A DNA stretch of 64,000 nucleotides from Candidatus Omnitrophota bacterium (GTDB lineage Bacteria; Omnitrophota; Gorgyraeia; 2-02-FULL-51-18), in NCBI GenBank assembly GCA_945877765.1, contig CAMDWQ010000001.1, forward strand, positions 86,253 through 150,252, written 5' to 3'. Under the pieces are notes generated by a model, which searched no databases, had not been told where the DNA came from, and was given only the letters and a program-made list of their open reading frames with translations. Each line of letters opens with the position of its first letter. The stretch's first letter is position 1. This document shows positions 30,907-64,000 of this stretch, piece by piece. Both the position numbers and the translations under genes were made by a program.

Positions 30907-33900
30907 ATGGATGAACAAAAAAAATTCAAAACTCAATATGGAAATAGACTGAAAGCAGTCTCTGCCTTCCTGGTAGTAGCTTTTTTATCTCAGGACGTGG
31001 CTTATGCGATTGGCGGCATTAATTTTAATGCAGATTCCGCCAAGGTAGCCTCTAATCCAATAACATTCTCAAATGACACCGCCATCGTCCGTAAATTTTC
31101 TCAACGTTCGGACGAAATGGTGATCAACATCCAAGACGCCCACCAGAAGCTGGGGGCACAGCAAAGCATTTCCTCTATTCTCGATCGGCTTGTCTGGCAA
31201 TACGATCTTAAGCTCATCGCGGTAGAAGGAGGTAGTGGGGATGTCGATACCTCTGCTCTATCTAGTCTGCCCGATGAGGCGCTCCGGAAAAAAACGGGTG
31301 AGCACCTTCTCAAGGAGGGCCTTATTTCAGCCGCTGAGTTTTATTCGATTGTTTCGGGTAATCAAGTGCGTCTCTACGGCGTCGAAGAGGATGCTGTTTA
31401 CCGAGAAAATTTGGAAGTCTTTAAAAAGTTAATTGACGATAAAAAAGACCTTCGGCGCGAGTTGACACTTTTGCAGGGCGCGCTACGCTCGCTGGAAGAA
31501 AAAATTTATAGCCCCGCGCTCAAGGAGCTTGAAGCCAAAAAGATGAAGCATTTCCGCGGCCAGATGAAGTTTGCCGAGTACTGGGAATATTTTAGTAGCC
31601 TTGCGGCGCGTCTGGGGATTGCATTGGACCCATACCCCAATCTTGAAAAAATTTCAAGCACGGTGGTCTTGGAAAAAAATATCAATTTCTCTGCCGCTTC
31701 CGCAGAGCGTGAGTCTCTTATCAAAAGACTTAGCGCTGAATTACCAAAGCTATCGCTTGAGAAGCTTATTTTTGCTCTGCTTGAATTCAAACAAGGGAAA
31801 ATGGCCTCTGGCAAGTTTTACAAGAACCTCGTGGAGATGGCCGAAGCGGCGTCGATTGAGCCAACAGCATACAGCAATATGAGCACTTATTCGCGGTATG
31901 TATCACTCTACGAGGCGATCGATCTTTTGGCGGTATTTGATGAAGCGGAGCGTTTTGAAAGTAAAATCCGGGAGGCTCTTTTTGCCAACTTAGAGGAACG
32001 CAATCTCTGGGTCCTGACCCATCGAGTGGGCATTGTTTCAAGGCTTTTGGATGTGACGCTGGATTCGGCGGATTATGAACAAATCAAATCCCACAAGGCT
32101 GATTTCCAGATCAAGAAACTAAAAGAAGATCTTTTTTCTCTGGGTGTGCGGCATGGATTTTCCACAGCAGGGGACGTTGATTTTGACCGTCTTGAAAAAA
32201 ATATGCCCCTGGCTCTGCGCTTTTATGAACTAGCGTCGCAGAGAAACCAGATTCTTTTAGCCAACACACTTAAAAAAATGCGCCGGGAAAAAATTCAGGT
32301 GGCGGCACTCGTGACAGGAGGTTTCCATTCGGACGGTATCGCCAAACTCATGGAGGAAGAAAAAATTTCCTGTCTTGTGGTGATGCCCAAGTTTGATGAG
32401 AAGTCGCCGGACCGGCCTTATATCTCAGTATTAACTAAAAAGCCTAAAGAATATGAGCAGCTTTTTAAGGATTCTGATTTTTATCTGACCGCGGAAGTAT
32501 TTTTTAATCATTTTCCTGATTACGGCGAAGATCGGTTGGCGGCGCTGGTGGCAAGTCTAGACCGAGTCAGCGGAAAAAATCATTTCACCTCAGGCGTGGT
32601 CCATCAACGCGATTTTGTCAGGCGCTGGGTGCGTGGTTTACGCGCACGGACGCGTGATATACAAAACCCTGCGGTTTCTGTCAAAAAATTAAATCAGGCC
32701 CTGCGAGGTGTGTCTGCAGTCAGGCGCGAAGGCGATTTTTACCGTGTGAAAGTAGGCGAGCGAGAATTTAACGTACCACTGGATCAAGCTAGCCGTGAGA
32801 TTGATGGTAGTCCGATAGAAATCACAGCGGTCAAGGCGCCCGCTTCATTTTTGATAGAGACCGATAGCCGGCAAGCCACTGCCCAAGACGTCTCGGCGTT
32901 GGTGAATCAGTTTTCATCCAAAGTTTCTGTGTGGACGATGCCTGGTTCCACGCCAAGAACGGTGCGGGTTGCTGTCAATCGTGAAGTGGAGCGGTTTGAA
33001 AGGGCGCGGAAGGTTCGCTTTACTCCCCAACAGAAAAGAAGTTTTCAAACGGTGGGCGCGCGTCTATGCGGGCCGAATCTTACCGCCCGGCTCCGAGCGC
33101 TTCCTGAGAATCAACAGCCAAGTATTCGATTCCAGCCGTCTAAAAAGCCGTCGATCGATGTTATTCGATCTCCTCGACAAAGAGAAGTTGTCCGGGCACA
33201 GCTTGAGATTGCCGAGCTTCGTGGAGGGCAGTCGGGAGGCGCTGCCATCATGGCCCTTGATTCCAAGACTGGGCATGTGGTGGTTGTTTTTGGAAAAACT
33301 AAAAAACGCAAGCGTGAGAGTCCCTCTGTGGCCGTGGATGCGGCCGTAGAAAAACTTGTTTTAAAAGCAGCTAACGCCGGGATTGTCAGTCTTCCGGAAT
33401 ATGACGCCGAGATGTCTCATTTGCGCTGGGCCACTGGTGGTGAAAGTACCTGGGATAATGCTCAGCCACACTGGCATGAAGAGCCCAAAAACGTTGCCGT
33501 TTTTGGAGTTTCCCGTCAGGAACACGGGGGTCTCAAGCTAGGAAGCAAGATTATGACCGTTTTTAATATTATCCAACACAACGGCGACCTGGATTATCTG
33601 AAAAAATCATGGCTTGTTAACGGTATTCAACAGGTGGTGACTTTGCCTTTCAGAAAAGCTCGCGAGATTTATGTCAGGCTCATGCCGCGCTCCAAATCAC
33701 GAGGTACGTCCGACTCCAAAACGATCGCCGAAGACGTTGATTTTGAGCTCACCCAAGGGCAGGTTTGGAAATCGGTGCGTTATGCTTATGGAAAAAATTT
33801 TCATGACAATAGCCATCAAGATCTCCCTTTTAGTGAAAAAACGATCAATGATGCCTCTGCGATTGCCACCAGATGTATTGAGGAGGTTGGTCTGGATCTG

Positions 33901-36900
33901 GGGGATCGGTTTTTCAATCCTGGCGCAGTCACGCTAACCGATGCCAGTCCAGAAGCCGTGCTCGCGGTCAAACAGAGAGTGTTTGACCGGTTTAGAGACG
34001 AAAAAATATTTAATAAAAACTCTGAGCTTGAAGAATTTTCTGATGCTTTCACCAAGGCATTTTTCTATCACGACATGGCTTTTGTGATGCGTTATCTTAG
34101 CTTTGCTTTTGTGGGCACGGCGGTGGTTAATGTTATGTCGACGCTTGAGCCGCGGTGGGGGGTATTTGCCAAGACGCAGTCTTTCTCGATTGGTTTTAAC
34201 AGTGAGGGTGTTCTAGGAGCCGCCGAGCCCGAAGCGGTGACGGTACCCCTCATGCAAGATGGGGATTCAACGGCGCGGCAGATGTTTGTCCCCGATGGCT
34301 ACTACGGGACGATTGAGCAGGACCCCAGGGCGAACAATCTAATTCGTTTGCATGCCCCTTTGGTTGAATTTGACGATCTCTACCAGAGGCCAGCACCTTT
34401 ATCCGAAGGAGAGTTACACCTTTTTCCTGTCATTGGCAACCCCAAAATTGAAGTCGCCTCGGGAGATATTCGCCAGCTGGCCAGTGTGGAAAATAAAAAT
34501 GCCATCGAGGACATTCCTTCGGTGCTTAAGCGCGTGCGCGAATCGGTATTGCCCGGCGGCCGCAATCGAAAAGCACTCGATCATTTAAAAGCGCTCATCA
34601 CACGACAGGCCCAGGAGTGGATTTCGGATGAGGAGACGCTGATAGCCAAACATGCCCAAGAAGGCCGGGTGCACGAAGCTCATAAGGGAGGAAACTACAA
34701 TCTTGTTTTGTATGGCTCTGATTTTAATCTCGATCTGATTCGCCGTGTCGCCGACCAGATGCATGGCGGTATGATGGATTTGAACGTGGCTGTCATGGAT
34801 TCGGGAGAGCTTGTAGAGCTTTTTAAGAAAAAAGCCGCCGGCCGTGAAGTGCCTATCGGACCCAACACGATATTTCTAGCGGTCAGTAACTCGGGTCAGA
34901 CGCAGGCGGTCAAAGCCGCTCATAGCGAAATAGTCAAAATGCAGGAGAGGGGCCAGCTCAGAGAGGGAAACAATCTTGTTTTGACGCAGAAACTTTTCAA
35001 CGCGCTTAGCTCGGAAGGGGGCCAGGGCTATCAGCTTGAGGATGAGGTTTTGCCTTATACGTTTCTTAACCTAAGCCACATCCGTCCAGACGGTAGTATT
35101 ACCCGACGCAATTCCGAAGCAGCCAGCGTGACCACGGCGGCGACGGAGGCTGTGCTGACTGAAATGATGATCGGTGCTTACCAGGCCGTGAATGATTTGG
35201 CGCACAACTCTGCGCAGAATCCACAACAGCTAAGACCCTATAGACTCGCCAAAGATTTAACCAGCGAAGATTTTTTGGCTTTCCGTGAATTCCAGCTAGC
35301 TCACTATGAACAACAGGCGGCCAATCGCATCGGTGTCGATTCCGAAGGTCAGCCCATCACGGATTCGCCCGACCAGAAGGCACTCGGTCTGGAAGTTGAG
35401 TACCGCACTCAGTCGGTGACCGAATGGATCAAGGGATTTATGATATTCAATCTTGGCTACATCGCTTTGATTGCGTGTGTGTTGCAACTTCCTCTTTTCG
35501 GAACGGCACTGGGAAGCATTTTCAACGCCCGTTTTGACGGTGCTCTTGATGCAGTTTTCTACTTATCAGGTTTTTGGCTGACGGTGGTTTTGATTCGCTG
35601 GTGGGAGGGGCGTCCCTTGTGGGATCGTATCTTGCCTCGCGTGGAAATATTCGCCGATCACGTGGGTTATTCGAGAATCATCGAAAGATTCAATGTGGCG
35701 CTTCTTGCCAACGCGCAGGGTTTCTTGAGTCCGCTTTTTTATTCGGCGAATGTGGTGCGCGATGTATTGCACCGCTATTCGATTCGTGGCTGGCGCGGCG
35801 TCTTGTTTTATATTTATAGTCCCGACGAAACCATGGGTTTAAAAGAAGCCGGGGATGCGGACTCCGCTGGCATGGTGGCTAGCCAAGTGCGTTTTAACAC
35901 GTTCAATGCCGGCGGCCCGCACACGCATAAAATTCTTCTACAAAATTCTGCGTACAACCGTGGCATGTCCAAAAAAAGCGGTCACCAAGATGTGGGCCTG
36001 TCAGACGTTACCGATGAATTGAAGAGGAAATATAGCGGCAAAATATCCGAGACGATGCAACACTTAATCAACCGCCGCTTGGGGGATCTAAGCAATTATC
36101 TGATTCCGGAAATCGTGATCGGCTACCGGCGCGCGGTTAATCTCTCGCGTTTTTTTAATCATGTGCTGGACGAAATTTTCCTAAGCTCTCTTGTGGGTAA
36201 GTGGCCGGCTTCCGTGGTACGAAAAACTTTGGTGCTTGTGGGTTTTGGATGGTTTCACGAGACGTTTCCTATCGGCGAAAGCTCAGGACGCGCGGGGATT
36301 CTTTCTACCTCTCACCCGGTGAACTCAAGCCTTCCAGGTGAAGACTCCGCCCGGATGTTGACTCGACGGGAAGCTGCTCAACAAAACCGTAAAAAAGTTT
36401 TAAGTGAGCTTGTCAGTGCTGGCGCCAAGGAAATGGAGCAGTCTCAGATTTTGGAAGAGATAGAAGCTGAGGCCATTGTAATCCAAAAAGTAGCTGAGCG
36501 TACCTATCAGAGAGAAATTGCAGAGGCGGAAGAAGTTTTTGCAAATAAGGTGAGGACGATAGAGGAGCATTTAACTAACGCAAAAGCTTTGACAAATAAT
36601 CCTCTTATAGACGATTCTTTCTCCCCAAGTCTTGATGCGAGAGCGGATCGTGCTCGCGAAGCGGCAGTGGCAGTGAGGGAAGCCACGATGGAACAAGCGG
36701 GAAAAAGAAGAGAAGCGGCGTCAGAAAATGCAATTTTGGACGCGGCTTCACCCAAAATCAAGGCGCTGAAAGCTAACCGGCATTTGCCTGTCCCGGGGAA
36801 TCCGGATCGTATCGAGCTTAGCCAGACATTTGACGTGGTGCAGGCCGATGGGGGCATGGATGTCTATTTTCCTGGTGGAAAAAGAATCTCATTTAGTCTT

Positions 36901-39900
36901 GCGCCCGGCGGCCAATATTATCAAGGCGACAACTCACACCCTTCGGTGAAAGCGGTACGGCAGGTATACAAGGGACAACCAATGCTCGTTATTAGTGGAG
37001 ATCTTTCTTCGGTATGGAAAGAGCATAATCCTGAATATGATCTTGTGCTTCCTCTCGTCGACCAGGGTTCTGCTACCGGAGCTCGTCTGAGTAGCGGCGC
37101 TTTTCTTATCAAAAAAGGCATGCTTTTAGACCCAACCGAATTGGTAAGACCGCAAGAGGTAATCCCAAATGAAGTGTCGGGCAAAGCATATCTAGTCAAA
37201 AGATCCCCCGATGCTGTCGTCGCGGAGTCTTCGATCCGTCCATTCACAAGCGAGCCTTCTGCCGCGTTAAAGAGTGTCATTGCTAAACGTAAAGCATGGT
37301 TTTCAGAAGGAGCGCTCCGTTTATTAGGGATATCATTTCTCTCCGTTGTCATCTGGATTTTTGTGGATATGAACAGCCGCTCAACTAGAAAATCGTTAAG
37401 CACTTCAGCGCATGAAAATAATCCTCCGGCTGCCGCGGCTCTGGAAGAAAAGCCTTTAGTGCCAGAGTCTTCCCCGGTCGTCCCCTCGATAAACCAGGTG
37501 CAGGTTGTGGCAGGGGAGCACTTAAGAAAGGACTTGGCATCCGTGCTAGAAAAATCAAAATCGGAAGAAGAGAAAGCCGAGGAGCTAAAAGCCGCAAAAG
37601 AAATAGCCGAGACGGAACTGGCTTTGCTGGAGCAAGAAAAAAAACAAACTCAAGATGAGCTTGCGATTGTCTTTGCCAAAGAGCAAGTGGCAGAAGAAGA
37701 AAAAAATTCTGCTAGCCATGCACTGGAGGCGGCAAACACCCAGCGCGAACTATTCATCAAGCAAGCCTCACTCGTGGATCAGGAGATAGCGGCCATGGAC
37801 GAGGCGCAATTGCAGAAAGGTGCGGATGTACCGGTTAGTATCAAATCAGAAAGAAAAAAATTGTCGGCCGCCGATCTTGATCGGGCCGCAAGATCTACAG
37901 AGGAAGTTTTGAAATTCCAACCCGCTTTAAGTCCTTATACAAAAGAGCTTCTGTCTAACGGTGTGCTTCACAAGATCAATGAGAAATGGTCTTTTAAGCG
38001 ATTTGAAAGTCCTCAAAGAACCACTTGGTGGCCGTTGACCGAGCAACATCTTGAAGGCGTTAAAACACTTGAGCAGCATTGGAGAGATTCACGTCAAACG
38101 CTGACCGATGCTGGAGTCAACCGCAAGGAAAATGGCGAGTTTTGGGTCTCGGTAGATGGCACCAATTTCAAAATGCCCTTATTGGGAACCGATTTAGTAG
38201 GCATTTATTATCCCCAGAATAAAACAAAAGGTCAGCCTCAACTTTATTTTGTACAACTGGGCCGTGCGGCTTCTGCGAAAATCACACAACAAATCGCTAC
38301 CGAGAATTCTTTGGCGAGAATCGAGGCTGAAAAGAAAGCCCAGGAAGCTATCGAGAGTCACCGTCTTTTAATCGAGAAGAAAGCAGCGATTGATGTTCAA
38401 CATTTAGTGGTCGAGCAATCGATCAAGAGTTTTGGTGAGGAGATTCAAACAGCGGACGAAAAATGGCTAGGATTGAAAAACAAAGAGACCGAGCTCCAGC
38501 GGCTGATTCATTCTATTCAGATCGAAGAAGGTCGGGAAAAGCTGTTACAGCTTACTCACGAGGAAGAGAAGTCGCGTTCCGATGCCGATGAGTTGAAGAC
38601 TCAAGCGAAAAACCTCCAGCGGCAATTAGACGAAGCCCAAAAAAATATTCAATCAACAGAAAAGCCGAACACCTCAGAGACAACGCCGCCCGCCACTGCT
38701 TCGGTTTCGGAGCTTGCACCGCTTTTCAAAAAAGCTCTACAGGCTGATAATTTTATTCAATTCAGAGATCTTGAAAATAAATTTCTGGAACGCCTAGCCA
38801 AACTAAAACGAGGCGACAAAGACAAATTTTCTAAAGATGTCTTGGTGCTGCGCCAATTTCGCCAGTGGCACCTGTCCGTGAAGCGGATTAATGAGGCGAA
38901 GGCCCGAGCAAAAAATGCGGCAGCCACCGGTGATCTTGCGGCTTATCGCCGGGCACTCGGGCAATTTTATAATCACTTGGAAGTTTTGCGCGGTGTCGAA
39001 GAAAAGCTCCCGCCCGGACACCACTTTGTTAACTTCGACAAGGCGGCCAATAGCATTGTTTCGGCGGGAAAAGTATTTGGGGGTCGTAGTCCCGCGTCAC
39101 AGAAAATTGCCCGTCAAATTTTATCGCTTGCCGTCGCATCGACGGCGTCGGGAGGCCGTCTTGCGGCATCTTTTTCAACGGTAAACAACAGGAAATTTAA
39201 TCTTCTATTTCTGGTACCGCCGGGGGTCAGTGTCCAACAATTCTCGCGCCAAAATATCGATTTTAGAACCAGTCTTGGTCCAGCGGCATCGCGATTTAGC
39301 ACGCGCTACGCGCCAACGAGTGTTTATACCGAGCGTTTTCTCCGAGATAAAAATTACCCCGTGGATGCTATTTTGGACAGCACCTCGTCAACGCCTGAAA
39401 GTACTTTGCTACTTTTGACCAAACTTGCCGAAACGGATGCGCGGACGTTTTCAACACTCTATCCTTTCGTACAGCGTCTTCTGGCTCGTCCGGAAAATAT
39501 TTCTCGCTTGTCTTGGGCGGAGGAAGCGCTTCTGGCGGTGTGGGTTGAACAAACTCTACCCAATCCTGCTCCAAGGAGAACATTTGTCTCATCGGGACGT
39601 CTAGTCGCTCAACCTGAAATATTAACCAATCAAGCCGAGCAGGGCGGGCATTCTTCAGAAGTGCTTGCCTCGATACTGGATCAGGCGATGGCTCATACGA
39701 TACTTGCAGAAACTAAAGCAGAAAAAAATTCTGCACGGATCGACCTTCAAACGGCAACTGAAAATATTCTTCAATATCTTTCCCCATCATCCGCCGAAGA
39801 CGGAAGACTCGTATTTTCCGGCAAAGCCAATGCTTTGGCGCTTCAACTGGCTTCGACACAGCGCTCGCGCTATGCGCTTGTGGATCCCAGCTATCGCGTG

Positions 39901-40978: not shown

Positions 40979-41252
40979 CTTTAAGAAGCTCGTCCCATTC
41001 TTTACTCCAAACTTCTTTCGCTTGGCGAAGTTTTTCTGGGTGCTTCATGGCATCGGCCGCCAATGCTTGAATGAAGGTTGCAAAGAGAGGTTCGGACTCC
41101 ATCGTATCAAGTTCTGTTTTGTGGGAAATACTGATTTTTTGACCAACAACTTCCAAAATTACGTCATGACTTTTTGTCTGTCTAGCAAAACCAATGGGAA
41201 TATCTACGGCGTAGCTTCCGCCGTGTTTGAATAATTTCTTAAGTAGAATCAT
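40956..41252 (-). CDS. AbrB/SpoVT-type antitoxin (PrlF-like), partner of the YhaV-like toxin
   Basis: KHGGSYAVDIPIGFARQ is a SpoVT/AbrB swapped-hairpin motif. Start placed at the internal ATG at 41252, which has aaggag 8 nt upstream. Overlaps the toxin start. Confidence 0.65.
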   Translation of the reverse strand: MILLKKLFKHGGSYAVDIPIGFARQTKSHDVILEVVGQKISISHKTELDTMESEPLFATFIQALAADAMKHPEKLRQAKEVWSKEWDELLKGVTADDK

Positions 41253-41298
41253 GGCAAGGTCTCCTTTTCTATAGGAAGTATACATATAAATATATACT

Positions 41299-47784: not shown

Positions 47785-47801
47785 AGATTCTATCATTTTA
47801 A

Positions 47802-54273: not shown

Positions 54274-54403
54274 CGACGTCTCCTGTTTATTTAACGGCGA
54301 TAATTCTACCACACAATCTTTTGGGGGAGGTAAGGCCTTTATTTGTAGGATTTTTTTGGGACGGGTGATAAAATACCGTGCATGTTCACCCGAGGGCATT
54401 CCG

Positions 54404-55120
54404 ATGCATAAATCTTTTTCAATTCTAAGTGCGGTGGTGTTCTTTACCGCTTTGTTTCCTGCGTCCGTCATCGCCGCTGAGGCTCCCTATTGTGAAGTCG
54501 TGCGTGTCGCTGGAAGTGTCCAATTAAACCGCCGCGGTCAGGCTCCGGCGGATATTCAGCAGGGCATGATGATTTTGAAAGGGGACAAGCTGGTTGTCTC
54601 GAAGGCTTCTTCGGCGGATCTTGCTTTTGACCCACAGTGGCAAAATGTCGCTCACTTAAATGAGAACACGCGCGTGGTCGTGCGCTATCTCAACCCCACC
54701 CGCCTTGAAATGGTGTCCGGCGATATTTATTCGAAGCTGGACAGCCTGCCGAAAGGATCTAGTTTTGAAGTCGTTACGCCGACCGCGATTGCTTCTGTGC
54801 GAGGGACCAAGTTTAGGACCACGCATGAAAAGGGGACAACGACCGTTTACAATGATTCAGAGACTTCTTTGGTTTACGTGTATCGCCTGGATGAAAACGG
54901 AAATCGCTCCGGCCGCGCTGTCGTTCTTAAGCCGGGAGAATCTACGACGTTGATTGGTGAGGTAGAGGTCTATGATTCTATGATTGAAGATCTTCAAGAC
55001 TCTCGTGACCGAGAGGACCAGGATCAGCTTAATGATGATCTTAAAAATCGCGTAAAAAATGAAGCTTCTTCTGGTGACGGTGAACAATTCGGAGACGGGG
55101 AAGGGGATACTCAGCGCTGA
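54404..55120 (+). CDS. FecR-domain protein (secreted)
   Basis: Signal peptide MHKSFSILSAVVFFTALFPASVIA. TAIASVRGTKF matches the FecR-family motif. Acidic C-terminus. Confidence 0.55.
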   Translation: MHKSFSILSAVVFFTALFPASVIAAEAPYCEVVRVAGSVQLNRRGQAPADIQQGMMILKGDKLVVSKASSADLAFDPQWQNVAHLNENTRVVVRYLNPTRLEMVSGDIYSKLDSLPKGSSFEVVTPTAIASVRGTKFRTTHEKGTTTVYNDSETSLVYVYRLDENGNRSGRAVVLKPGESTTLIGEVEVYDSMIEDLQDSRDREDQDQLNDDLKNRVKNEASSGDGEQFGDGEGDTQR

Positions 55121-56226
55121 TGCCTACAAAAAATTTGAAAATGAAGAAGCTGTTATTTTTAGCCCCCAAACTTTTAAAAACAGCAGGAGTCTTTGGGCTT
55201 CTAACAATTTTGACGGTCACTTCCGTCGTGGCGGCGAATCTTTCTGATGAAGAAAAAGCACAAAAGCGCCAGGATCTTGAGAAATTTTTCTCCAACGCTC
55301 TTATCCAGACCAAACCCGAGGCCGTCAAAAAAACCTACCAAACTTTACAGATGACTGGTAGTGGCTCCACTCGCTATGGTTATGACAGCAATGTCGATCT
55401 TGACAGCAGTGAAGAGGGTGATTTTTTCTACCAAGAGAAAATTGGCGGTAAATTGGAGTACGCGCCGGAGGGGGCCTCGCTTTGGGGGATGCCTATCTTA
55501 GGAGGCGTTGAAGGCCGCTATGATTATTGGGGGTACTTTGACCGCGATGATATGAATCGCCAGACGATTTACGGCGCGCCTTATCTTCAATTAAACATCA
55601 ACCAGGATTTGGAGCTTCAAGCCGCGTATGAGTTCCGGGCGCGCCTCTACGATACGCGTGATGATTTAAGTTATTTTTCTAACGGCGCCAAGACTTCGTT
55701 GACTCACCGAATTATCCCTGGCTTGACGCAAAAAGGCACGTTTAGCTACGAACGTCTGGATTATACGGATCGCGCCGCGCTTTTACCCGATGGAAATTTT
55801 TCAGCCAGCGACCGGCAGGATAACCGGTACGAAGCATCTTATGGAATTAGAGACCGGATAGGGCCTTGGACCATTGACCTAGGAGGAAGTTGGCTCTGGA
55901 ATGATTCCAACGATCAGTATTTTGATTACAATGATTTCAACGAAGCGGGAATTGACGGGTCCGTGTCCTACCGCGCGACAGAGAGACTAGTGTTGACCGG
56001 CTTCGGCGGCTGGCACAAAAGAGAGTATGACTCCCGTTTAATTTCGCCAGAGTTTACCACGGTGCAGAGTGACGATTGGTATTATGCCGGCGCAAGGGCT
56101 TTTTATGCCATCAATGCCTGGTCGGGCCTGGATGTGACTTTCACCTACTATCAAAATGACTCCAATGACCCCAACCATGAGTACGACTCCATGATTACTA
56201 GTGCTGGGTATCATATTTATTTTTAA
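55120..56226 (+). CDS. putative outer-membrane beta-barrel protein
   Basis: Signal peptide. Alternating amphipathic strands rich in Y/G/D. C-terminal ...GYHIYF ends in an aromatic residue, as OMP beta-barrels do. Start overlaps the FecR-like stop by 1 nt. Confidence 0.5.
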   Translation: MPTKNLKMKKLLFLAPKLLKTAGVFGLLTILTVTSVVAANLSDEEKAQKRQDLEKFFSNALIQTKPEAVKKTYQTLQMTGSGSTRYGYDSNVDLDSSEEGDFFYQEKIGGKLEYAPEGASLWGMPILGGVEGRYDYWGYFDRDDMNRQTIYGAPYLQLNINQDLELQAAYEFRARLYDTRDDLSYFSNGAKTSLTHRIIPGLTQKGTFSYERLDYTDRAALLPDGNFSASDRQDNRYEASYGIRDRIGPWTIDLGGSWLWNDSNDQYFDYNDFNEAGIDGSVSYRATERLVLTGFGGWHKREYDSRLISPEFTTVQSDDWYYAGARAFYAINAWSGLDVTFTYYQNDSNDPNHEYDSMITSAGYHIYF

Positions 56227-56227
56227 A

Positions 56228-56420
56228 GGGGGTCCAAATTTGTAACCCCTTAGCATTTCCGAACGATTAATGAGCGCCCATGTCATCCCCGAAATTTTTA
56301 ATCGGGGATCATGTTAAAGGGACAGTCTATGGATTATTTTAAGTATGATCCCCGATTAAAAATTTCGGGGATGACATTAGGGGGAGTTGTTCGGAGATGC
56401 TAAGGGGTTACCCAAATTTT
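56228..56420. mobile_element. Composite MITE-like element: roughly 33-bp terminal inverted repeats enclosing a perfect foldback copy of the repeat family
   Basis: ggtccaaatttgtaaccccttagcatttccgaac at 56229-56263 is the near-exact reverse complement of gttcggagatgctaaggggttacccaaattt at 56386-56420. The core 56282-56378 is gtcatccccgaaatttttaatcggggat ... atccccgattaaaaatttcggggatgac. The motif gggagttgttcgga is shared with 47827-47840. Confidence 0.7.
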
Positions 56421-56610: not shown

Positions 56611-59600
56611 ATGAAGTTATTCAATAAGTCGTATTCGGTTCGTGTGATGAAGGCATTTAGCTTCATTCTTCTTGTTTCTTTCGCGGGTTCTGAGATTGCC
56701 CAAGCGGCTTCTCTTTCCGGCGTTTCTAGTTTGCCGGCAGCTTCTAAAATTTCTTCACCTCTTCTCGATGTTTCGTCTTTCCAGGTTCCTGGCGCCTACA
56801 GCCAATATAAGGAAAGCCACCAAGCTCCCTTACAGAACGGTTCCCCTGCGCCGCTGATTATTTTGATCCAGGATGCGCATGCCAATTTGTCCAGCCAGGA
56901 AAATCTTGCCAAGACTCTCGATGACTTGATGGAACGCTACCAGTTTAGCGATGTTCTGGTGGAAGGCGGAAGCGGGGATGTGTCGCTTAGTCCCTTGCGC
57001 GAACTGATGGATGCCGCGTCGATGAAGCGTGTGGCAGGACGCTATCTGCGCGATGCTGAGATTTCCGGGGCAGAATATCTCAACCTGACTTCTTCTCGGC
57101 CGATGAATCTGAAGGGCATTGAAGACTTGGATCTCTACGTACAAGGACTTAAAGCCTACGCCCAGTTGGCGGATCAGCGAGAAAAAATTCTAAGCTATCT
57201 AGATAAAAGCCGCATAGCCGTGGAAAATCTTAAGAAAAGACATTACCCCTACGCTTTGTTGTCCTATGAAAAATCAGCCAACAGAGCGGTTTCGCCTGAA
57301 AAATTGGTGGAAGTGGCCCAAAAACAGGGCATCTCATTTTCTGAATTTGCCGAACTAACAAAACTTTCTTTTCTGTTGATCGAAGAGAAGCAAATTGATT
57401 TTAGCCTCGCTCAGCTTGAGCTGGGGTCGATCGTCGAGAAGATCGGCGCTAAAGATGCTGGCAGTCTTGTGCGGGAGCTCTCCCTCGAGCCCAAGCAAAA
57501 GGGCGCGGGGCAGTATGCCTATTTTAGAAAGATTATCGAAGCAGCTAAAGCTCACAACGTCGACCTCTCCTCGATGAGCCAATTTCAAAACTACACCGCG
57601 TATCTAGAAAAGTTTTCAAAACTAGACATGGCGGTACTTCTTGAAGAGGCCGAGAAATTTGAGCAAATCGTTTATAGCCGCCTGCTCGATCATGAGACCG
57701 CCCATACGCTGCGTGCCGTGGACCGCTACCTCGAGCTTCTAGAGACGGCCTACCGCATCCAGATGACCTCGTCTGAATTCGCTTTGTTTCTTGAAAATAC
57801 ACCCGATTTTCCGACGATCTCCTGGCAAGCTTTTTTAAATCGCAATCTTTTGGAAGAAGGCTTCAACGAAAGCCTCGTGCCCCTTGAAAAATATCTCGAA
57901 GAGGGCCGTGTGGCGCTGGAAGCGTTTTATCGCGCGGTAGACGCAAGAGATCTTGCGTTTATCAAAAATATAGAAAATTGGAAAAAGGAAAATCAGGCTA
58001 ATACACAATCCAAGATTTGTGCTTTAATTGCCGGAGGTTATCACACCAGCCACCTGGCCAAACTTTTGAAGGAAAAAGGTTATTCATATGTAGTGATCAC
58101 CCCCATTGTCACTTCCGCGACCAACCAGGCCAAGTATGAAAAAGTACTCCTAGCGCCTTTAAAATCCGAAACCAAGATCGTCCAGACCGTCAACGGCAAA
58201 GCGCATATTGCCGGGGTCGATGGACAGGCGACCTATGCCGCTTTCGCGGGACAGGTTCCGGTTGCTATTGTCAGAGAATCCGGAAGGACGCGGCTTTCTC
58301 CACGCGTGGAAGGTTTTGTTGGTCAGACGACGCGGGCGAGACGCAATTTCCAAGGCGCTCTTTTGAAAAATACAGGCGTATCGTCTGCGACAACTTTAGC
58401 TCCGGCGAGGTTGGCGGAAGTCCGTTTCGGTTTCGAAAACGCAGAAAAACAGACAACTCATTCTTTTGCTTCTTTCAATATTGGAAAATTGCTGAATCGG
58501 CAGCTTTCGATTCTTCCTGATGCGGCAGTCGATGCTGTGCGCGAATATCTGCAGAGAGCCTATGATAAAAAATGGATCAAAGGGTTTAAAGTTGTGGATT
58601 TGACGGCCTCCCAGATTAACATTCATATTTCTCACAATCATGGAGAGAACAACGCGGATGTGCACCGGATCATGCTTGAAGCTATTCGTGCAGGTCTTGA
58701 AACCAAATCAATGAAGGGTCGATTAAATATTAATCCTTCCGCAATTAGCGCGCTTGAGTTGACGAAGGCGCTCCAGGTTTCTTTTGCGGATCACCGTTTT
58801 CTGGAAAGGCCCGGAGTTTCTGAGAGCGTTGAGGTGGCGATGGGTGTGAATGTGGACATTTCCGCGTTCAACAATACAGCCTATGATCTTTTCGGCAGCC
58901 TTGATTTCAATCCCGCCCCGACGCTCAGCGGAGACAAGATCCGTGGTGTCCGGTTTTACTTCCAAAAACGTGCAGATATTCTTCGCGGGATCACCAAGAT
59001 CAGTGTTTTGGAAGTCTCTAAAAAAGAAGAAGGCGGGTATGATATTAACCAGCTTGATAAAATAAAAATAATGCTCTCGCAAAATGAAAATATTGTCACT
59101 GCAGTGTATCCAGTTCGGGGGGCTGCGTTTAAAGATCCAAGCGAACCATTGATGACGGTGACATTCCAGCCAGTGTTCGGTTCCGACGGCGAACCTGCTC
59201 TCAATCCCATCGCTATTTTTCGTGGACAAAGCGGGGGCCCTCCTGTTGGCGCGATCGGGCATACGGTCGCTAATACGCGCTATGTTTTAGGGGGACCTAA
59301 AGCAGACCGCTATGTTGCGGTTAGACCTTATACGCTTAAACAAGCGCGCAAACCTATCAGAGAAAAGGGTATTGGCGGCTTTGTGATGTATGGTTATGAA
59401 CAAGCGGGCAACGGGTATATGCCACGAAATGGCTATATCTCAGATTATTTTGGTTTAAGCGTGACATTTCTTTATGCCTACATTCAAAAAGCAAGAAGGT
59501 TTGCCAAGGTGATGCTTGCACACGAAGGATTCCAGCCTTTTCTTCACCCGCGTGCAGCAGCCAAGTACGCTGAGCCCGTCAGACATGAGCTCAATGATCG

Positions 59601-62600
59601 ATTTGTCGATGTCGTCAAAGACTTCGAAACGGATCCATTTTATACGGACGTCGACCGTCGGGTGGCGGCCGGAGAATTGGTTAAATTTACATCCGGTAAA
59701 GTCGATTTTGGTGCGACCAATGGGCATACGAAGGCACCCGCCATATACACAGCACTCCAGAGAGCATATTTAGAGGTAATGAAAGAACGCGGATTGATCA
59801 CGGACTACTTTACTCTTGGACAGGATACCGATGACAAAATGAAGCGTGTAAGTCTGGAAGCTAATTATGGGACGGGCGATGATACTCACGTGACTGTCAT
59901 TGGAGGAGAAGCCGAGGACGTCCAGTTGATCATCAAAAGAGCCCTGGGGGCGGGACCTGTTTTTCATATGCTTGCTTTTAAAGATACGGACCAGAAAGAG
60001 AAGCCCGGTGTCGGCACTTACGGTCTTTTGCAGGATCTGCAAGGCTCGGACGCGGAGGCTGTTAAAAAGAATCCTTTCGGCTGGCTGGGACTAGGAGACA
60101 AAGCTGTTGCTGAGAGATTTTTTGAACTGGCCAATCAATTGGCGGATGAGCGTGATATCAAAGCCGGCGTGATCGAGTCCCTTTATAACCAATGGAAAAC
60201 TTGGAACCTGACGCAAGATCAAGAAGAGCAAGAGCTCGTTAGGGGAAGCGGTAATACTTCCGCCCAGGGTATCGGAGTGGCTTACCAATACATGGATGCT
60301 AAGAGGGACAAGGGCTACGCGGAGTTGAATGCCGATAAAATGGGGCCGCAATCCAAGAATGTCCTCTGGGCCCACGTGATCCAGCAGGATGTGCCAGCCA
60401 ACGGCCGAACGGTTGAAATTTGGGATGTAAAGGCTTTTGATGAAAAGGGCAATATTGCAAGTAAAGATCTTCCCAGAAGCTGGTCGGATTTAAGCTATCT
60501 GGTTCTTTCCGCTCTAAAGGCGAAAGAGCAGCGTATTACGCCCGCGGATGCTGAATGGCTTGAAAAAACAGCCTATGCGGGTGGCACGCTGTCAGACGCT
60601 GCGAAATATGACCGTTTGAATACTATTTTAAAGCACATTGGTTATGTGCCCTCCAAACGCATTTTCATGGATGTGGAAACAGAGCTTGAGCAGATCAAAA
60701 CCATCCTCGGAGACTCTGATCGTTTTAATGTGAAGGCGCTTTGGGACAAGAAGCAGTCGGGTTGGGATCCTAGTCGCGCTGAGGATTATCTGGACCGCCC
60801 TGTTGCCATGTCTACCGTATCCCGTTTGGGACTTTTGGCGGGCGGAGAATATGTCGGAAAAGATGATGACAAAATTATGGGTACCCCTGACGTGATGCAA
60901 CATTTTTTTGATTACTTGGAAAAGACTCCATGGATGCTTCAGGGGGATATGAATGGCTCCCATCAGCTTCAGGCATTACTTCTTCCTTTAGACGAAGCGG
61001 TGGCCACGATCAATAGCGCTCCTATTGCCGTAGCACTGATTAATCACTTTGACGAAAATGGCCGGCCGACAGGAGTGACAGACGTCTTCAAAAGCAAAGC
61101 ATTTCAAAAACGAAGCAAGCAAGCCGCTGTTTTTAATCTTGATTTTATTTTGGCGCAACGAGCCACCAACCCTCATCTAGCACATCGGGAACAGGTAGAA
61201 GGGGCTTATGCCATCGAAGCTATCTCTCGGGCATTGGATTCTCCCGATAGCCCGTATTGGCTTGATAAACTACAAGCTCAACATCCGGGAGAGTACCCAC
61301 GGCCGGTATCTGCTGATGCATCGATGCTCTATACCGCGGTGGGCGGAAATCGGGTGGCTTCCTATCTAGAGCTTTCCGCTGCGCGACTTGCTGTCAATAC
61401 TGTCCAATTAACTCAAGATCGCCTCAACACCATCTCACTTGATTTTACCGATAACACATCGGATGCGGTGATTAACAGGGCGATTGAAAATGGAGCTACT
61501 GAAGTGACCACCAACCCATTCTCTATCGCCACTTCTCTTGTGAAGGGAAATGATCCAGCACTGTCCGCACTTATCGCTGCGGCTCCACCAACTTTAAGAG
61601 GGCGGGAGCTTTTGAAGTGGGTGTATTGGAATCGCGGCAAGCAAATTGCCAAAAATCCACAGCTCGTGAAATTTTTTAAGGAAAGCAAGGGAGATCATGG
61701 CTGGGTCACTGTCGAAGTAGATCCGACGTTCTCTTATCTTTGGGAAGTGCAAACCACCGACGGCATAATAGTCACGCCTGTCCTCGATGAAAAGGGTATT
61801 TTTATCCGTAAGGAGCTCCAAGGTGTGCTTGGGGAACAAGTTGAGAGTTTGCAGGCTCTTGAAAGAATGTTGTCTGATGGATCTCTTAGAGTACAAGTTC
61901 ATAATGCGCTTGTAAAAGCAATACTTCTTGAAGTTAAAGAAATTGCAACGTATGCCCCCAACATCGCGGTCACGGTAGGCAATACTCGTGGTTTAAAACA
62001 ATACCTCGGAGAAGACTTGGCTCTGTCGGTCGGGCTTACAGTTCTTGAGGAAGCCACAGCCCTAGGCATTTCGACTAATTTTACGCGGATTTTTGGCCGT
62101 GTGGATGCCCAAGCTAACCAGGCCGCCTGGCGGCAAGGCTATCTTCGTGCACAAAATGTAGGCTTGGTCAGTGCCGATAACCCTGTTCGCGGGCATAACA
62201 GTGTTTTTGTCAGCCCTGTCGAGCCCTACACACTTGCCAACATTAGGGATAAAGGCGATTTGGACTATGCTCAAGGGATGGTAGGTCTCGTGACAGCCGT
62301 GGAAACTTATTTGCGAGGTTACAGTGAAAACCTGACCAATGATAGTACTATTAATAGGGATCAAAATTTAATTATTGCAAGTCTCGAAAACGAAGGTGAT
62401 GGTCCTCCCGATTTTAATATGTCAGCGCTGATTGGCGGCGGTGAACGGGCGGTGTTAACTATCACGCCGGATATTATTGATAGTTTTAATCAAAATGACC
62501 CAAATAGTATAACGCCCACTCTTGGTGAAGCCAGGACGATATACCAGAGCACGAGGTCTTTGGAAGCTGCCATAGTCCCTCTCATTACTCCTTTTTTTAA

Positions 62601-64000
62601 GATGGCTGATAGACTCCAACCTCTTTTCAATACCGGATACATGGTTGATTTAAAAGAGGGACGCATCAATGCTGAAATGGCCGCCGTGCGTGCCTACAGA
62701 GAATACAATAGATTTAGGACCTTGTCTTCCAGTAAAACCATGCTTGATACTCTTTCTGTTGAGGGAGACGTCAAGTTTGCTGGTCTATTCCTTCTGGCTA
62801 TTTCAAAAGTTGACCAGGCTGGTGCAGCCGCCAGACTTGCTTCAAACACCAACCAATTAAGTGACGCTGGCCCCAATGCAGATCTTGCATCAACCATCAC
62901 CGTTAATTTAGCGAATCAAAGCTCCAGCCTAGCTGCCGCAAATGTAACTGCGGCTCCCGCAGCGGCAGGTCTGGTATCCACTGGCATTGATGGTTTAGCT
63001 CCTAATGGCAGGAACCTAGTTAGCAGCACAAGCACAGTTGAGACTTCCGCGTCAATCATCCATTTCGCTTCGGGTGAGGTGCGCATTCCACCAAGTCAAT
63101 TAACGGCTGAGCAGGCAGAGTCTATTCAATTCACCCAACGTGACAGCGCGGCTTTGGCTCAACTAGCGGAAACACCAACTACCTTATCCACGTCGTTCGC
63201 TTTTTCTTTAGAGAGTGTAAATGGATTGGCTGTGACCGCTACACCGACGTCGGCTGTTACGGTTGTTATTACCACCAATCAAGGCAGTGCACGTACCGAA
63301 TTTCGTTCAACTTCTCAAGACCGCAGCGCCGCACAAGGTCAAGCTAGTAGCCTCCGGAATGTGTCTAGCGCTGTTTCAAATGAGAGTCGGTATATCGAAC
63401 AAGCCAGAGATGTTTATCATAGCGAAGTCCAAGCTGCGGGAGGCATCAAAAAAATCGAAGCTCGTATGATTGATATATCGCTATCTCGATACGCCACAGG
63501 ATCTCCAGCGCTTCAAAAAGAGCGAATCTTTAATCTGTTGGAAGCGCTTCTTCAAGTTGCCAACGCTGAAGGTGACAGTCTCTTTATGCACCGCTTTGTA
63601 GACGTGGAGAGTGTGAATGCAAATGTTCTAAACGACAGCGCTATTCAGGTGCTTGTGGATATTTTAGTAAGCAAGAATGTTTTAGCTCCAGACCCATTGT
63701 CTGGCACCATGTCTCCTTACAAGGATGCGGTCACGGGGCTTGCGGTAAAGGAATTTACGATGGCTTCCTCTGTGAACTTAGCCGAGGTGACCACAGGTTA
63801 TTTGCCTTTTGCTCCATATAGCGCAGATGGTGGAGGATATGCCAGAGAGCTAGCTTGGCTGTATCTGATTAGGACAGCGAGTATTCAGGATGCCAACGAC
63901 CCTTCCCAGGCATTTATGGAACTGTATCTATCTTATTTACCTCTGGCACAACGAAATGATACCAATCGGACCGCTCGTATTAAAGCCTTCTTAAGGGGTG
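56611..64000 (+). CDS. giant secreted protein C (more than 2460 aa, 3' end beyond window); paralogue of A and B
   Basis: Not in the ORF track because it has no in-window stop. Manual translation from the ATG at 56611 (gaggag RBS) gives signal peptide MKLFNKSYSVRVMKAFSFILLVSFAGSEIAQA, then LIILIQDAHANLSSQENLAKTLDDLMERY...LVEGGSGD and ALIAGGYHTSHLAKLLKEKGYSYVVITPIVT at 58021-58110. These are in frame with, and collinear with, giant gene B. A Ser/Thr/Ala-rich low-complexity tract lies at about 62860-63360. Confidence 0.8.
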   Translation, partial: MKLFNKSYSVRVMKAFSFILLVSFAGSEIAQAASLSGVSSLPAASKISSPLLDVSSFQVPGAYSQYKESHQAPLQNGSPAPLIILIQDAHANLSSQENLAKTLDDLMERYQFSDVLVEGGSGDVSLSPLRELMDAASMKRVAGRYLRDAEISGAEYLNLTSSRPMNLKGIEDLDLYVQGLKAYAQLADQREKILSYLDKSRIAVENLKKRHYPYALLSYEKSANRAVSPEKLVEVAQKQGISFSEFAELTKLSFLLIEEKQIDFSLAQLELGSIVEKIGAKDAGSLVRELSLEPKQKGAGQYAYFRKIIEAAKAHNVDLSSMSQFQNYTAYLEKFSKLDMAVLLEEAEKFEQIVYSRLLDHETAHTLRAVDRYLELLETAYRIQMTSSEFALFLENTPDFPTISWQAFLNRNLLEEGFNESLVPLEKYLEEGRVALEAFYRAVDARDLAFIKNIENWKKENQANTQSKICALIAGGYHTSHLAKLLKEKGYSYVVITPIVTSATNQAKYEKVLLAPLKSETKIVQTVNGKAHIAGVDGQATYAAFAGQVPVAIVRESGRTRLSPRVEGFVGQTTRARRNFQGALLKNTGVSSATTLAPARLAEVRFGFENAEKQTTHSFASFNIGKLLNRQLSILPDAAVDAVREYLQRAYDKKWIKGFKVVDLTASQINIHISHNHGENNADVHRIMLEAIRAGLETKSMKGRLNINPSAISALELTKALQVSFADHRFLERPGVSESVEVAMGVNVDISAFNNTAYDLFGSLDFNPAPTLSGDKIRGVRFYFQKRADILRGITKISVLEVSKKEEGGYDINQLDKIKIMLSQNENIVTAVYPVRGAAFKDPSEPLMTVTFQPVFGSDGEPALNPIAIFRGQSGGPPVGAIGHTVANTRYVLGGPKADRYVAVRPYTLKQARKPIREKGIGGFVMYGYEQAGNGYMPRNGYISDYFGLSVTFLYAYIQKARRFAKVMLAHEGFQPFLHPRAAAKYAEPVRHELNDRFVDVVKDFETDPFYTDVDRRVAAGELVKFTSGKVDFGATNGHTKAPAIYTALQRAYLEVMKERGLITDYFTLGQDTDDKMKRVSLEANYGTGDDTHVTVIGGEAEDVQLIIKRALGAGPVFHMLAFKDTDQKEKPGVGTYGLLQDLQGSDAEAVKKNPFGWLGLGDKAVAERFFELANQLADERDIKAGVIESLYNQWKTWNLTQDQEEQELVRGSGNTSAQGIGVAYQYMDAKRDKGYAELNADKMGPQSKNVLWAHVIQQDVPANGRTVEIWDVKAFDEKGNIASKDLPRSWSDLSYLVLSALKAKEQRITPADAEWLEKTAYAGGTLSDAAKYDRLNTILKHIGYVPSKRIFMDVETELEQIKTILGDSDRFNVKALWDKKQSGWDPSRAEDYLDRPVAMSTVSRLGLLAGGEYVGKDDDKIMGTPDVMQHFFDYLEKTPWMLQGDMNGSHQLQALLLPLDEAVATINSAPIAVALINHFDENGRPTGVTDVFKSKAFQKRSKQAAVFNLDFILAQRATNPHLAHREQVEGAYAIEAISRALDSPDSPYWLDKLQAQHPGEYPRPVSADASMLYTAVGGNRVASYLELSAARLAVNTVQLTQDRLNTISLDFTDNTSDAVINRAIENGATEVTTNPFSIATSLVKGNDPALSALIAAAPPTLRGRELLKWVYWNRGKQIAKNPQLVKFFKESKGDHGWVTVEVDPTFSYLWEVQTTDGIIVTPVLDEKGIFIRKELQGVLGEQVESLQALERMLSDGSLRVQVHNALVKAILLEVKEIATYAPNIAVTVGNTRGLKQYLGEDLALSVGLTVLEEATALGISTNFTRIFGRVDAQANQAAWRQGYLRAQNVGLVSADNPVRGHNSVFVSPVEPYTLANIRDKGDLDYAQGMVGLVTAVETYLRGYSENLTNDSTINRDQNLIIASLENEGDGPPDFNMSALIGGGERAVLTITPDIIDSFNQNDPNSITPTLGEARTIYQSTRSLEAAIVPLITPFFKMADRLQPLFNTGYMVDLKEGRINAEMAAVRAYREYNRFRTLSSSKTMLDTLSVEGDVKFAGLFLLAISKVDQAGAAARLASNTNQLSDAGPNADLASTITVNLANQSSSLAAANVTAAPAAAGLVSTGIDGLAPNGRNLVSSTSTVETSASIIHFASGEVRIPPSQLTAEQAESIQFTQRDSAALAQLAETPTTLSTSFAFSLESVNGLAVTATPTSAVTVVITTNQGSARTEFRSTSQDRSAAQGQASSLRNVSSAVSNESRYIEQARDVYHSEVQAAGGIKKIEARMIDISLSRYATGSPALQKERIFNLLEALLQVANAEGDSLFMHRFVDVESVNANVLNDSAIQVLVDILVSKNVLAPDPLSGTMSPYKDAVTGLAVKEFTMASSVNLAEVTTGYLPFAPYSADGGGYARELAWLYLIRTASIQDANDPSQAFMELYLSYLPLAQRNDTNRTARIKAFLRG

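Follow-up and report, generated by a model that had tools for sequence, protein, structure and literature searches.

The 64,000-nucleotide stretch analysed here (henceforth the window; positions 86,253 to 150,252 of Candidatus Omnitrophota contig CAMDWQ010000001.1) contains three very long open reading frames (ORFs), and the question that it raises is what kind of protein they encode. The Omnitrophota, most of them uncultured, are very small bacteria of wide distribution, and their giant genes are a recognised puzzle. Our reading is that the three paralogues, named A, B and C, belong to a family, spread across the Omnitrophota, of large multi-domain proteins that are exported or membrane-associated, in which their common N-terminal domain (henceforth the head) would mature a polyprotein; we put the probability of this reading at about 0.5. 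All three ORFs were present and intact on the + strand at the coordinates given by an initial annotation, which had been made from the letters of the window. Neither the ORF listing nor the translation contained an internal stop, and the uninterrupted frames of 6.5–9.6 kb speak against the frameshifts or stops considered at that stage. Together they occupy 37% of the window rather than about half of it. The earlier description as a tandem array holds in that the genes are clustered on one strand, but unrelated genes are interposed and the array is not strictly tandem.

The head domain

Pairwise BLASTP aligned all three N-termini, A1–509 with B45–563 (24% identity, E 2e-42), B44–658 with C12–602 (39% identity, E 5e-114) and A with C (25% identity, E 7e-40). 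The shared collinear module described in the initial annotation is thus real, although it measures about 520 residues including the signal peptide and not roughly 450. Every motif quoted for it was located: IQDAH (A75–79, B106–110, C86–90), (L)VEGG (A106–109, B136–140, C116–120) and GG(F/Y)H(S/T) (A471–475, B525–529, C475–479), the last followed by S(Y/C)(V/L)V(L/I/M)(T/P)P. Downstream of the head BLASTP found no significant similarity among the three, and what had been described as diverging mosaics are bodies made of unrelated domain sets.

Nor does the family appear to have arisen by local duplication and diversification, since closer relatives of each paralogue sit in other Omnitrophota genomes. 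The heads of B and C are 45–48% identical to proteins of other genomes, compared with 39% to each other, and the head of A is 43% identical to protein P0058, compared with 24% to B. P0058 is one of the orthologues of A (P0052, P0053, P0054, P0056 and P0058; 3,309–5,087 aa) that are collinear with it along its whole length, spanning the head, a GlmS-like module with its hydrophobic hairpin, and the C-terminal domain. Given these nearer relatives and full-length orthologues, A, B and C are, judged by their sequences, ancient paralogues. At their 24–39% protein identity synonymous sites are saturated, and the diversifying selection first suggested for them finds no support.

A search with C1–530 returned 50 relatives, with every named source being Omnitrophota or Omnitrophica and none carrying a precomputed Pfam domain; many are complete proteins of just ~470–550 aa. 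In an alignment of 42 head sequences (21–43% identical to the head of C), D88, H90, Q96, E118, G119, G169, Y176, Y440 and R446 are invariant (C numbering), and G475, G476, H478 and T479 are conserved in at least 90%. The AlphaFold2 model of the C head built from this alignment (pLDDT 88.6, pTM 0.79) has an alpha/beta core, with strands at 64–70, 82–88, 114–117, 166–170, 469–475 and 492–498, that is split by an all-helical insert of ~290 aa (173–461). The core contains a parallel beta-sheet and can be superimposed on solved members of the TIKI superfamily, which comprises Tiki, TraB/PrgY/GumN, EreA–C, Bcr135/136, ChaN, HopBA1, RRSP and PMT C2. When the model was compared with known structures, the top match, TorS, covered the helical insert only, with RRSP and PMT lower in the ranking, and Foldseek against PDB placed EreC first without reaching significance (E 0.19).

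The catalytic set of active TIKI enzymes consists of two His and two Glu, in RRSP E3900-x-H3902, E3930 and H4030, and its His-Glu pair corresponds to H85/E113 in Bcr135 and H3902/E3930 in RRSP (PMC6254334). The head carries an acid-x-His, a Glu 28 residues after the His in A, B and C alike, exactly the spacing of Bcr135 and RRSP, and a second His in GxxH. A helical domain between the two halves of the core is also found in Ere proteins, and several TIKI members are extracytoplasmic. There are differences too: the first acid of the head is Asp and not Glu, the insert is as long as ~290 aa, the head is always N-terminal in a very large multi-enzyme protein or encoded directly upstream of one, and it stays below the curated threshold of every model in the Pfam clan. 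PF04187 (ChaN/Tiki) gave sub-threshold matches in 5 of the 42 head relatives (best E 4.2e-5; in P0017 16.8 bits against a threshold of 27.7, at the GxxH end of the profile), A, B and C themselves matched neither PF04187 nor PF01963 (TraB), and a profile of the A head against PDB sequences gave spurious helical matches only. As no curated Pfam threshold is reached, we treat the head as a separate family inside the superfamily, and we hold with good confidence that it forms a new branch of TIKI/Ere/ChaN/TraB proteins at the level of a family. The tentative guess of a TraB/GumN/Tiki-like hydrolase in the initial annotation was therefore right, going by the C head model and the motif set. A near-invariant catalytic set would be expected of a maintained catalytic site and not of a mere scaffold, and the head probably retains hydrolase activity.

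Ahead of the head, A, B and C each begin with a positive n-region and an uncharged h-region of ~11–13 residues by hydropathy, so that the signal peptides first noted at their N-termini are matched by signal-peptide-like segments. The same holds for 65 of 67 heads (n-region net-positive, median +3; uncharged h-region, median 12 residues), and there the segment lies ~75 residues ahead of IQDAH. Because the h-region is short and the n-region positive, we regard it as a Sec signal peptide rather than a transmembrane (TM) anchor, and A, B and C are predicted to be secreted. For B, the most likely true start is TTG 41410: it is preceded by the ribosome-binding site AAGGGGA (41394–41400) and gives a canonical signal peptide, MNNRSLLIRHISLVLIATFLCQELSYSA, and the 37 residues ahead of it (41299–41412) have no counterpart in homologues. 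The hydrophobic hairpins reported earlier were recovered in the bodies of A and B; helical stretches occur in the bodies as well.

The head of B also contains copies of a palindromic hairpin-pair repeat family with the unit ~GTCATYCCCG-loop-CGGGRATGAC, found at 2355–2479, 2857–2938, 42202–42295, 42777–42844, 47792–47833 and 56278–56383. Both copies within the B head map to loops of the C model; further copies lie 8 nt past the B stop and upstream of the C start.

Family architecture, bodies and tails

When one genome per species was scanned, at least 558 loci were found to encode the head, nearly all of those listed being metagenome-assembled genomes (MAGs) named Omnitrophota or Omnitrophica, or third-party annotation (TPA) bins with generic labels. 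An Omnitrophota-type origin, as first proposed for the window, agrees with essentially all head relatives coming from Omnitrophota MAGs. Several genomes carry 3–5 copies, and same-strand arrays of 2–3 head genes occur at five other loci (L023, L051, L068, L080 and L081). We traced 90 head-bearing ORFs in 84 loci with 10-kb flanks. The head is N-terminal in 90 of 90; about 20 are standalone heads of 504–579 aa, and the rest range from 800 to more than 3,870 aa, many of them running past the flank. Among the head-bearing proteins seen, the longest complete one has 5,087 aa. Compared by BLASTP with 90 other head-bearing ORFs, A, B and C had no match outside the head, and a word-index homologue search with the A and B bodies gave one protein each. 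Other fused bodies hold a Ser/Thr kinase or HAD domain, or no recognisable domain.

Loci with standalone heads share a conserved gene order: a very large gene (6,624 aa in L001, 11,572 aa in L003), sometimes a PilZ gene (as in L003), the head, and one or two large proteins with signal-like N-termini of their own. These last carry enzyme domains: FBPase_3 and then PPDK in L001; PFK/GatZ and then PPDK+PGK in L003; FBPase GlpX in L053; a DeoC/LacD aldolase in L057; class II FBA, PFK and GAPDH in a single chain in L059 and L069; and PFK followed by GPI + GatZ-like + GAPDH in L064. Since standalone heads directly precede enzyme fusions, C resembles a head fused to the next gene, and this pattern of fusion and fission argues for a functional link between head and enzyme fusions. 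Going by the motifs that they retain, the bodies often hold highly diverged, motif-intact sugar-phosphate enzymes.

The clearest case is C, the sole one of the three with a match when all were run with phmmer against PDB sequences, to fructose-1,6-bisphosphate (FBP) aldolase/phosphatase. Its domain reaches 79.4 bits against PF01950 (gathering threshold 25), reported as two stretches, and includes the Y-x-x-K-D-D block, but falls far short of the NCBIfam equivalog NF041126 (75 bits against a cut-off of 520). Residues 1001–1600 are collinear with the Sulfolobus tokodaii enzyme ST0318 (PDB 1umg/3r1m) through N-terminal, central and C-terminal blocks. Compared with 1umg, C keeps KxDxG..GH (KVDFGATNGH, 1030–1039), the central SGN..G.GVA, EYVGKDDD (1413–1420), whose YVGKDD comprises the Tyr, the Schiff-base Lys and two Asp, and GxMxGSH (GDMNGSH, 1445–1451). 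It differs in length, ~560 aa with insertions against ~360–385 aa, and in following a signal peptide and head within a protein of more than 2,463 aa. A transaldolase-like region further on has sub-threshold matches to PF00923 (E 1.3e-4, 1612–1709) and the NCBIfam transaldolase (E 2e-5, 1807–1900). The 983-aa FBPase_3 protein syntenic with the head of L001 was considered as an orthologue of the C body and rejected, since only the catalytic block aligns. Ahead of the FBP-like domain, residues ~600–1000 of C (window ~58400–59610) contain NPIAIFRGQSGGPPVG, which resembles DPGLLFRAQSDFPATG, the segment after GKDDP in that L001 protein; this may point to another, degenerate copy of the FBP-type fold, without the Lys.

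The body of A is less easily read: neither Pfam and NCBIfam models on the complete A and B sequences nor Pfam on pieces of 500 aa, to E 5, gave a usable match. A phmmer search of 1.8 billion representatives with A561–1760 found 70 proteins with a common module of ~1,000 aa (~500 to 5,926 aa, nearly all large, apart from some short fragments), and no ordinary GlmS among them. The profile of this module against PDB had its best match in Escherichia coli GlmS (1jxa, E 3e-6), in three collinear blocks comprising HTRWATHG, the latter half of the glutaminase domain, and SQSGET of the SIS loop. As in GlmS, a class II glutamine amidotransferase (GATase-II) precedes SIS, and the module keeps Cys-Gly, R-x-x-T, N-G, D and then S-x-S-G-x-T; in A these are C721, HLRWATGG (838–845), QHNGD (890–894), SDSKTIA (935–941) and SNSGQT (1327–1332). 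Unlike GlmS, it is ~1,000 aa long with large insertions, a TM hairpin comes after it, and its Cys sits behind 720 residues of chain. Nearly all of ~45 homologues keep the Cys-Gly, and MCGN(F/L)G forms the very start of three short ones. In class II amidotransferases of the N-terminal nucleophile (Ntn) type the nucleophile Cys must be the N-terminal residue, and enzymes with propeptides are known (Bacillus subtilis PurF and GltB). As encoded, the Cys of A is residue 721, and a cut before it would be needed. The C-terminal domain of A has a Rossmannoid HAD fold.

About 20 homologues of the A module (P0065–P0115), head-bearing and head-less alike, have an HExxH within hydrophobic sequence 103–177 (mostly ~120) residues upstream of the Ntn Cys; A itself lacks this motif. 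Its position in those ~20 proteins suggests that a membrane metalloprotease module stands right ahead of the presumed cut.

In B, the only body module with a detectable relative is B678–1030, shared with head-less P0122. The HEFGH of B, with E-A-x-x-D 20 residues on, is a possible zincin site of gluzincin type, with the best PDB similarity being to the active site of oligopeptidase A (M3) at a non-significant E of 0.24. The ~300 C-terminal residues of B recur at the C-termini of proteins from L062, L005, L008 and L013 in a local profile. A C-terminal domain common to the whole family was looked for and rejected, the iterated local hidden Markov model recovering 5 members only; family-wide likeness at the C-terminus is limited to the last ~20 residues.

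Those residues form an amphipathic helix ending in [AS][AVLI]-COOH, in head-bearing and head-less large proteins alike. Among distinct stop-terminated ORFs of the window and the 84 loci (many of them paralogues, so that the counts are not independent), 43 of 49 ORFs of at least 1,000 aa end in A, V, L or I, against 108 of 386 of 200–600 aa (Fisher p ~4e-16); for [AS][AVLI] the figures are 29/49 and 18/386 (p ~4e-20). The tail occurs in A (40420–40473) and B (47728–47781), in 18 of 20 head-bearing GlmS-like proteins (SA, AA or QA), in head-less neighbours, in P0122 and in the upstream giants of 6,624 and 11,572 aa (...LLATNI, ...LTQSSI). Standalone heads lack it and have acidic tails instead. 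The tail resembles a signal for recognition or sorting, and may be one of the PDZ/Ctp type.

Table 1. Coordinates of A, B and C and of the features recognised in them (window numbering; TM, transmembrane)
Feature	Position	Strand	Residues (aa)	Remarks
ORF A	30907-40476	+	3,189	Open frame; head, GlmS-like module, TM hairpin, variable/coiled-coil middle, HAD-fold C-terminal domain
A signal-peptide-like N-terminus	30907-31008	+	1-34	...VAYA|IGG; hydropathy
A head	31084-32466	+	~60-520	TIKI-superfamily-like hydrolase with long helical insert; D77-x-H79, E107, GGFH474; fold by homology to C model
A GlmS-like module	33067-35406	+	721-~1500	Class-II (Ntn) glutamine amidotransferase + SIS
A hydrophobic hairpin	35428-35601	+	1508-1565	Two TM-like helices; Kyte-Doolittle; conserved in orthologues
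A third TM-like helix	37309-37365	+	2135-2153	Hydropathy
A C-terminal domain	39649-40473	+	2915-3189	HAD-phosphatase-like fold; ends in amphipathic helix, ...AEMSA-COOH
ORF B	41299-47784	+	2,161	As listed; 2,124 aa from probable start TTG 41410
B head	41521-42987	+	~75-563	D108-x-H110, E138, GGYH528
Palindromic repeat element in B head	42202-42295	+		Within coding sequence, in frame; repeat families D1/D2, inverted pairs I1, I2, I4, I5
Second palindromic repeat element in B head	42777-42844	+		In frame; translates to VIPAKAGIRSSLGADSRFRGNDN; ~18 residues more than C (I10, D10)
B conserved body module	43330-44388	+	678-1030	55% identity to head-less 1,727-aa P0122; no Pfam match
B HEFGHH, with GNITEAVYD 20 residues on	44668-44754	+	1124-1129	Possible gluzincin site, weak
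B hydrophobic hairpin	45061-45216	+	~1255-1306	Hydropathy peak 1285-1303
B C-terminal domain	46888-47781	+	1864-2161	Ends ...YVESAA-COOH
ORF C	56611-64000	+	>2,463	Frame still open at window end
C head	56788-58170	+	~60-520	Modelled copy; D88-x-H90, E118, GGYH478
C fructose-1,6-bisphosphate aldolase/phosphatase-like domain	59611-61290	+	~1001-1560	With insertions; PF01950 E 3.7e-22
C transaldolase-like region	61444-62310	+	~1612-1900	Sub-threshold

Surroundings of the three genes

Directly upstream of A lies a long same-strand cluster for sugar nucleotides and surface polysaccharides (14745–30660, +), with a PMT_2-like glycosyltransferase, GDP-mannose-dehydratase-type enzymes, GT2, an aminotransferase, a thiamine pyrophosphate (TPP) enzyme, a short-chain dehydrogenase/reductase (SDR), two epimerases, a dTDP-4-dehydrorhamnose 3,5-epimerase and transketolase-type sets (pyrimidine-binding plus C-terminal subunit at 19957–21081, and a split pair at 24657–26422). 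An IS21-type insertion sequence at 9872–11963 (-) has genes for an IstB-like ATPase (E 3.7e-49) and for a transposase that combines an rve domain with a Mu-transposase C-terminal domain.

The gap between A and B holds a toxin-antitoxin pair directly after A (40520–41285, -), a YhaV-family toxin (E 3.5e-27) with a probable antitoxin of 109 aa. Another pair directly follows B (47955–49282, -), an AbiEii toxin (E 3.9e-29) with an upstream partner of 197 aa. The latter belongs to an 8.8-kb gap between B and C with at least nine unrelated genes, among them the AbiEii/AbiEi pair, an acyltransferase, an epimerase, PepF, FKBP, FecR and a porin-like gene. A 153-aa ORF at 49423–49884 (-), without a Pfam match, contains a tandem 72-nt direct repeat at 49527–49658; read by hand on the + strand (the ORF being on the - strand), it gives roughly ...KGKNNxMFGK.H..., which is reminiscent of NUMOD3 DNA-binding motifs of homing endonucleases. 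Upstream of C (53803–56226) are an FKBP-type peptidyl-prolyl isomerase (PPIase, on the - strand), a FecR-domain protein and a protein of 368 aa, which matches beta-barrel porins weakly and whose last residues, ...YHIYF, are like those of outer-membrane proteins. A conserved PPIase near giant genes, of Rotamase_2 type, has been described (West-Roberts et al., 10.1101/2023.11.21.568195). The window ORFs scanned include no secretion gene of type I, II, V or VI, and among them A, B and C have neither a PilZ gene downstream nor type II/IV secretion or pilus genes nearby. Promoter and terminator scans gave the same counts as shuffled sequence.

Explanations and meaning

Giant proteins of Omnitrophota with FBPase, aldolase, TPI, GPI, PGM and PPDK domains have been predicted to be extracellular, with PilZ genes downstream and suspected cleavage (Archaeovorins; West-Roberts et al. 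2023, 10.1101/2023.11.21.568195), and a later catalogue describes a 'multi-enzyme metabolic cluster' class with signal peptide plus TM (SP+TM) topology (bioRxiv 10.64898/2026.06.07.730766). A, B and C come from the same phylum by the distribution of their homologues, have signal peptides and/or TM segments and long stretches without recognisable domains, and place central-carbon enzyme domains in an SP/TM-bearing polypeptide (FBPase_3 and a weak transaldolase in C, the GlmS-like module in A); post-translational cleavage is suspected in the published class as well. They are small relatives of that class, with 3,189, 2,161 and more than 2,463 aa (2.1–3.2 thousand) against 10–30 thousand or more, well below the lengths that define Archaeovorins (at least 30,000 aa) and the 2026 catalogue (at least 10,000 aa). 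They also differ in the scanned ORFs beside them, which include no PilZ or secretion genes, and in their N-termini: the papers cite C39 and S8 peptidases there, and not a TIKI/TraB/Ere-like domain or the tail. The literature searched contained no link of Omnitrophota to a TIKI/TraB/Ere-like domain, nor the head-body-tail organisation, the alternation of standalone and fused heads or the tail signature, and the head family appears not to have been described before.

The common plan would be a Sec-type signal peptide with a ~460-aa head, a paralogue-specific body, and a C-terminal domain with the helix and [AS][AVLI]-COOH. Under the reading that we favour, Sec would export the polypeptide, and the head, as an active hydrolase (peptidase or esterase), would act on its own chain, or in trans on the enzyme fusion of the neighbouring gene, to mature the polyprotein. 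In A a cut before Cys721 would separate head from body and enable the GlmS-like glutaminase; the enzyme domains would then work on fructose-phosphate-type substrates at the membrane or in the envelope, with a recognition step that depends on the tail. The ORFs themselves, their paralogy, the assignments of fold and motifs, the distribution of the family and the pattern of fusion and fission are observed; that the proteins are exported, catalytically active and processed, and where they act, is what we infer.

Several observations weigh against this reading. We know of no precedent for a 720-residue 'propeptide' before an Ntn cysteine. The HAD fold of A lacks the canonical motif I, DxDx(T/V), having LWVNDSS (LLVRDPS in orthologues) at the position assigned by eye to the first strand, and hhalign found no profile-profile similarity between the C-terminal domains of A and B. 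The HEFGH of B could be due to chance (~0.2 occurrences expected in 7.8 thousand residues by our estimate) and lies outside all homologues found. Related proteins carry ATP- or NAD-dependent PFK, PGK, PPDK and GAPDH and A a glutamine amidotransferase, domains that would be without their cofactors outside the cytoplasm, which argues against an export destination as their site of action.

This last point favours the main rival, a membrane-tethered metabolon facing the cytoplasm, which we consider unlikely on balance but to be taken seriously. Here the N-terminal segment would be an uncleaved anchor, or the topology prediction would be wrong, the enzyme domains would be the cell's own enzymes of upper glycolysis, gluconeogenesis and hexosamine synthesis at the inner face of the membrane, and the head a regulatory or processing hydrolase in the cytoplasm, where EreA/B are also found. 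The substrates and cofactors are cytoplasmic (glutamine and fructose 6-phosphate/FBP, with the PFK/PGK/PPDK/GAPDH fusions in synteny requiring ATP or NAD), and the catalytic motifs are retained. GAPDH, PGK and pfkA were called in 176 of 176 complete Omnitrophota genomes (bioRxiv 10.64898/2026.06.07.730766), calls that could be the head-linked enzyme fusions themselves, and an overlooked TM segment could invert a predicted domain location (West-Roberts et al., 10.1101/2023.11.21.568195). The N-termini speak for export instead: an h-region with a median of 12 residues is too short for a standard TM anchor, a net charge of +3 precedes it and an AxA-like site often follows (AQA|A in C, AYA|I in A), the positive-inside rule puts the chain after it outside, the syntenic head-less enzyme fusions begin in a like manner, and DeepTMHMM calls SP+TM for many such proteins (bioRxiv 10.64898/2026.06.07.730766). 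The short h-regions and their charges would be compatible with the need for cofactors if the proteins were delivered into a host or prey cell. Such delivery is part of a further rival, proposed in outline by the initial annotation, of a secreted effector or adhesin family, displayed on the surface or delivered to host or prey, with interchangeable payload bodies as in polymorphic toxins and MARTX and a head acting as a trafficking or effector protease like RRSP. A conserved N-terminal module joined to hypervariable bodies in 90 ORFs would fit it, and ATP/NAD-dependent payloads would be sensible inside a host cytoplasm; TIKI-fold effectors are known in MARTX (RRSP; PMC6254334), PMT and HopBA1, the genes have toxin-antitoxin modules and repeat elements at their flanks, as is seen in variable islands, and secretion and pilus genes have been reported near giant genes (10.1101/2023.11.21.568195; 10.64898/2026.06.07.730766). 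We nevertheless find it doubtful. The adhesin part is not supported: no repeats of adhesin type were seen, and the bodies carry diverged metabolic-enzyme domains and not toxins; neither RTX repeats nor an autoprocessing CPD nor immunity-like small genes were seen, and the Sec signal sets the family apart from substrates of type I secretion systems, which have none. Secretion genes of types I, II, V and VI are missing from the scanned ORFs, the architecture of A is conserved end to end in orthologues and not shuffled, there is no sign of recent duplication, and internal TM hairpins argue for retention in the membrane.

Two other explanations concern narrower points. The head could be a non-catalytic binder (of haem or another ligand, as in ChaN) or a docking scaffold for anchoring or assembly only, and PMT shows that catalysis can be lost in TIKI folds (PMC6254334); with acid-x-His, Glu at +28 and GG-x-His invariant or nearly so in 42 divergent sequences, we judge this improbable. 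That the ORFs are assembly artefacts or pseudogenes is barely credible: the sequence probably stems from a metagenome assembly and B contains internal repeat elements, but the frames of 6.5–9.6 kb are uninterrupted, orthologues from independent assemblies align along the whole length of A, and the repeat insertions of B keep the frame and sit in predicted loops.

Head and tail may even mark a dedicated export-and-maturation pathway, with the head as polyprotein protease (cutting, for instance, before Cys721 of A and so unmasking an Ntn glutaminase), for an extracytoplasmic or host-directed 'glycolysis kit', a thought that we offer as speculative and rather improbable. In these ultra-small, parasitic bacteria such a kit of motif-intact sugar-phosphate, glycolytic and hexosamine enzymes would operate in an enlarged periplasm or in an attached host or prey cell, a picture just as conjectural. 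Should these enzymes be the cell's only copies, the implication would instead be a membrane-tethered central metabolism. What makes the giants of this phylum puzzling is why glycolysis-type domains sit in predicted non-cytoplasmic proteins and whether the giants are cut. To this A, B and C bring small, tractable representatives of the class, of 2–3 thousand residues against 30–150 thousand, and a phylum-wide N-terminal domain, present at 558 loci or more, whose fold is assigned with confidence and whose hydrolase motif is complete, fused to enzyme proteins or encoded directly upstream of them.

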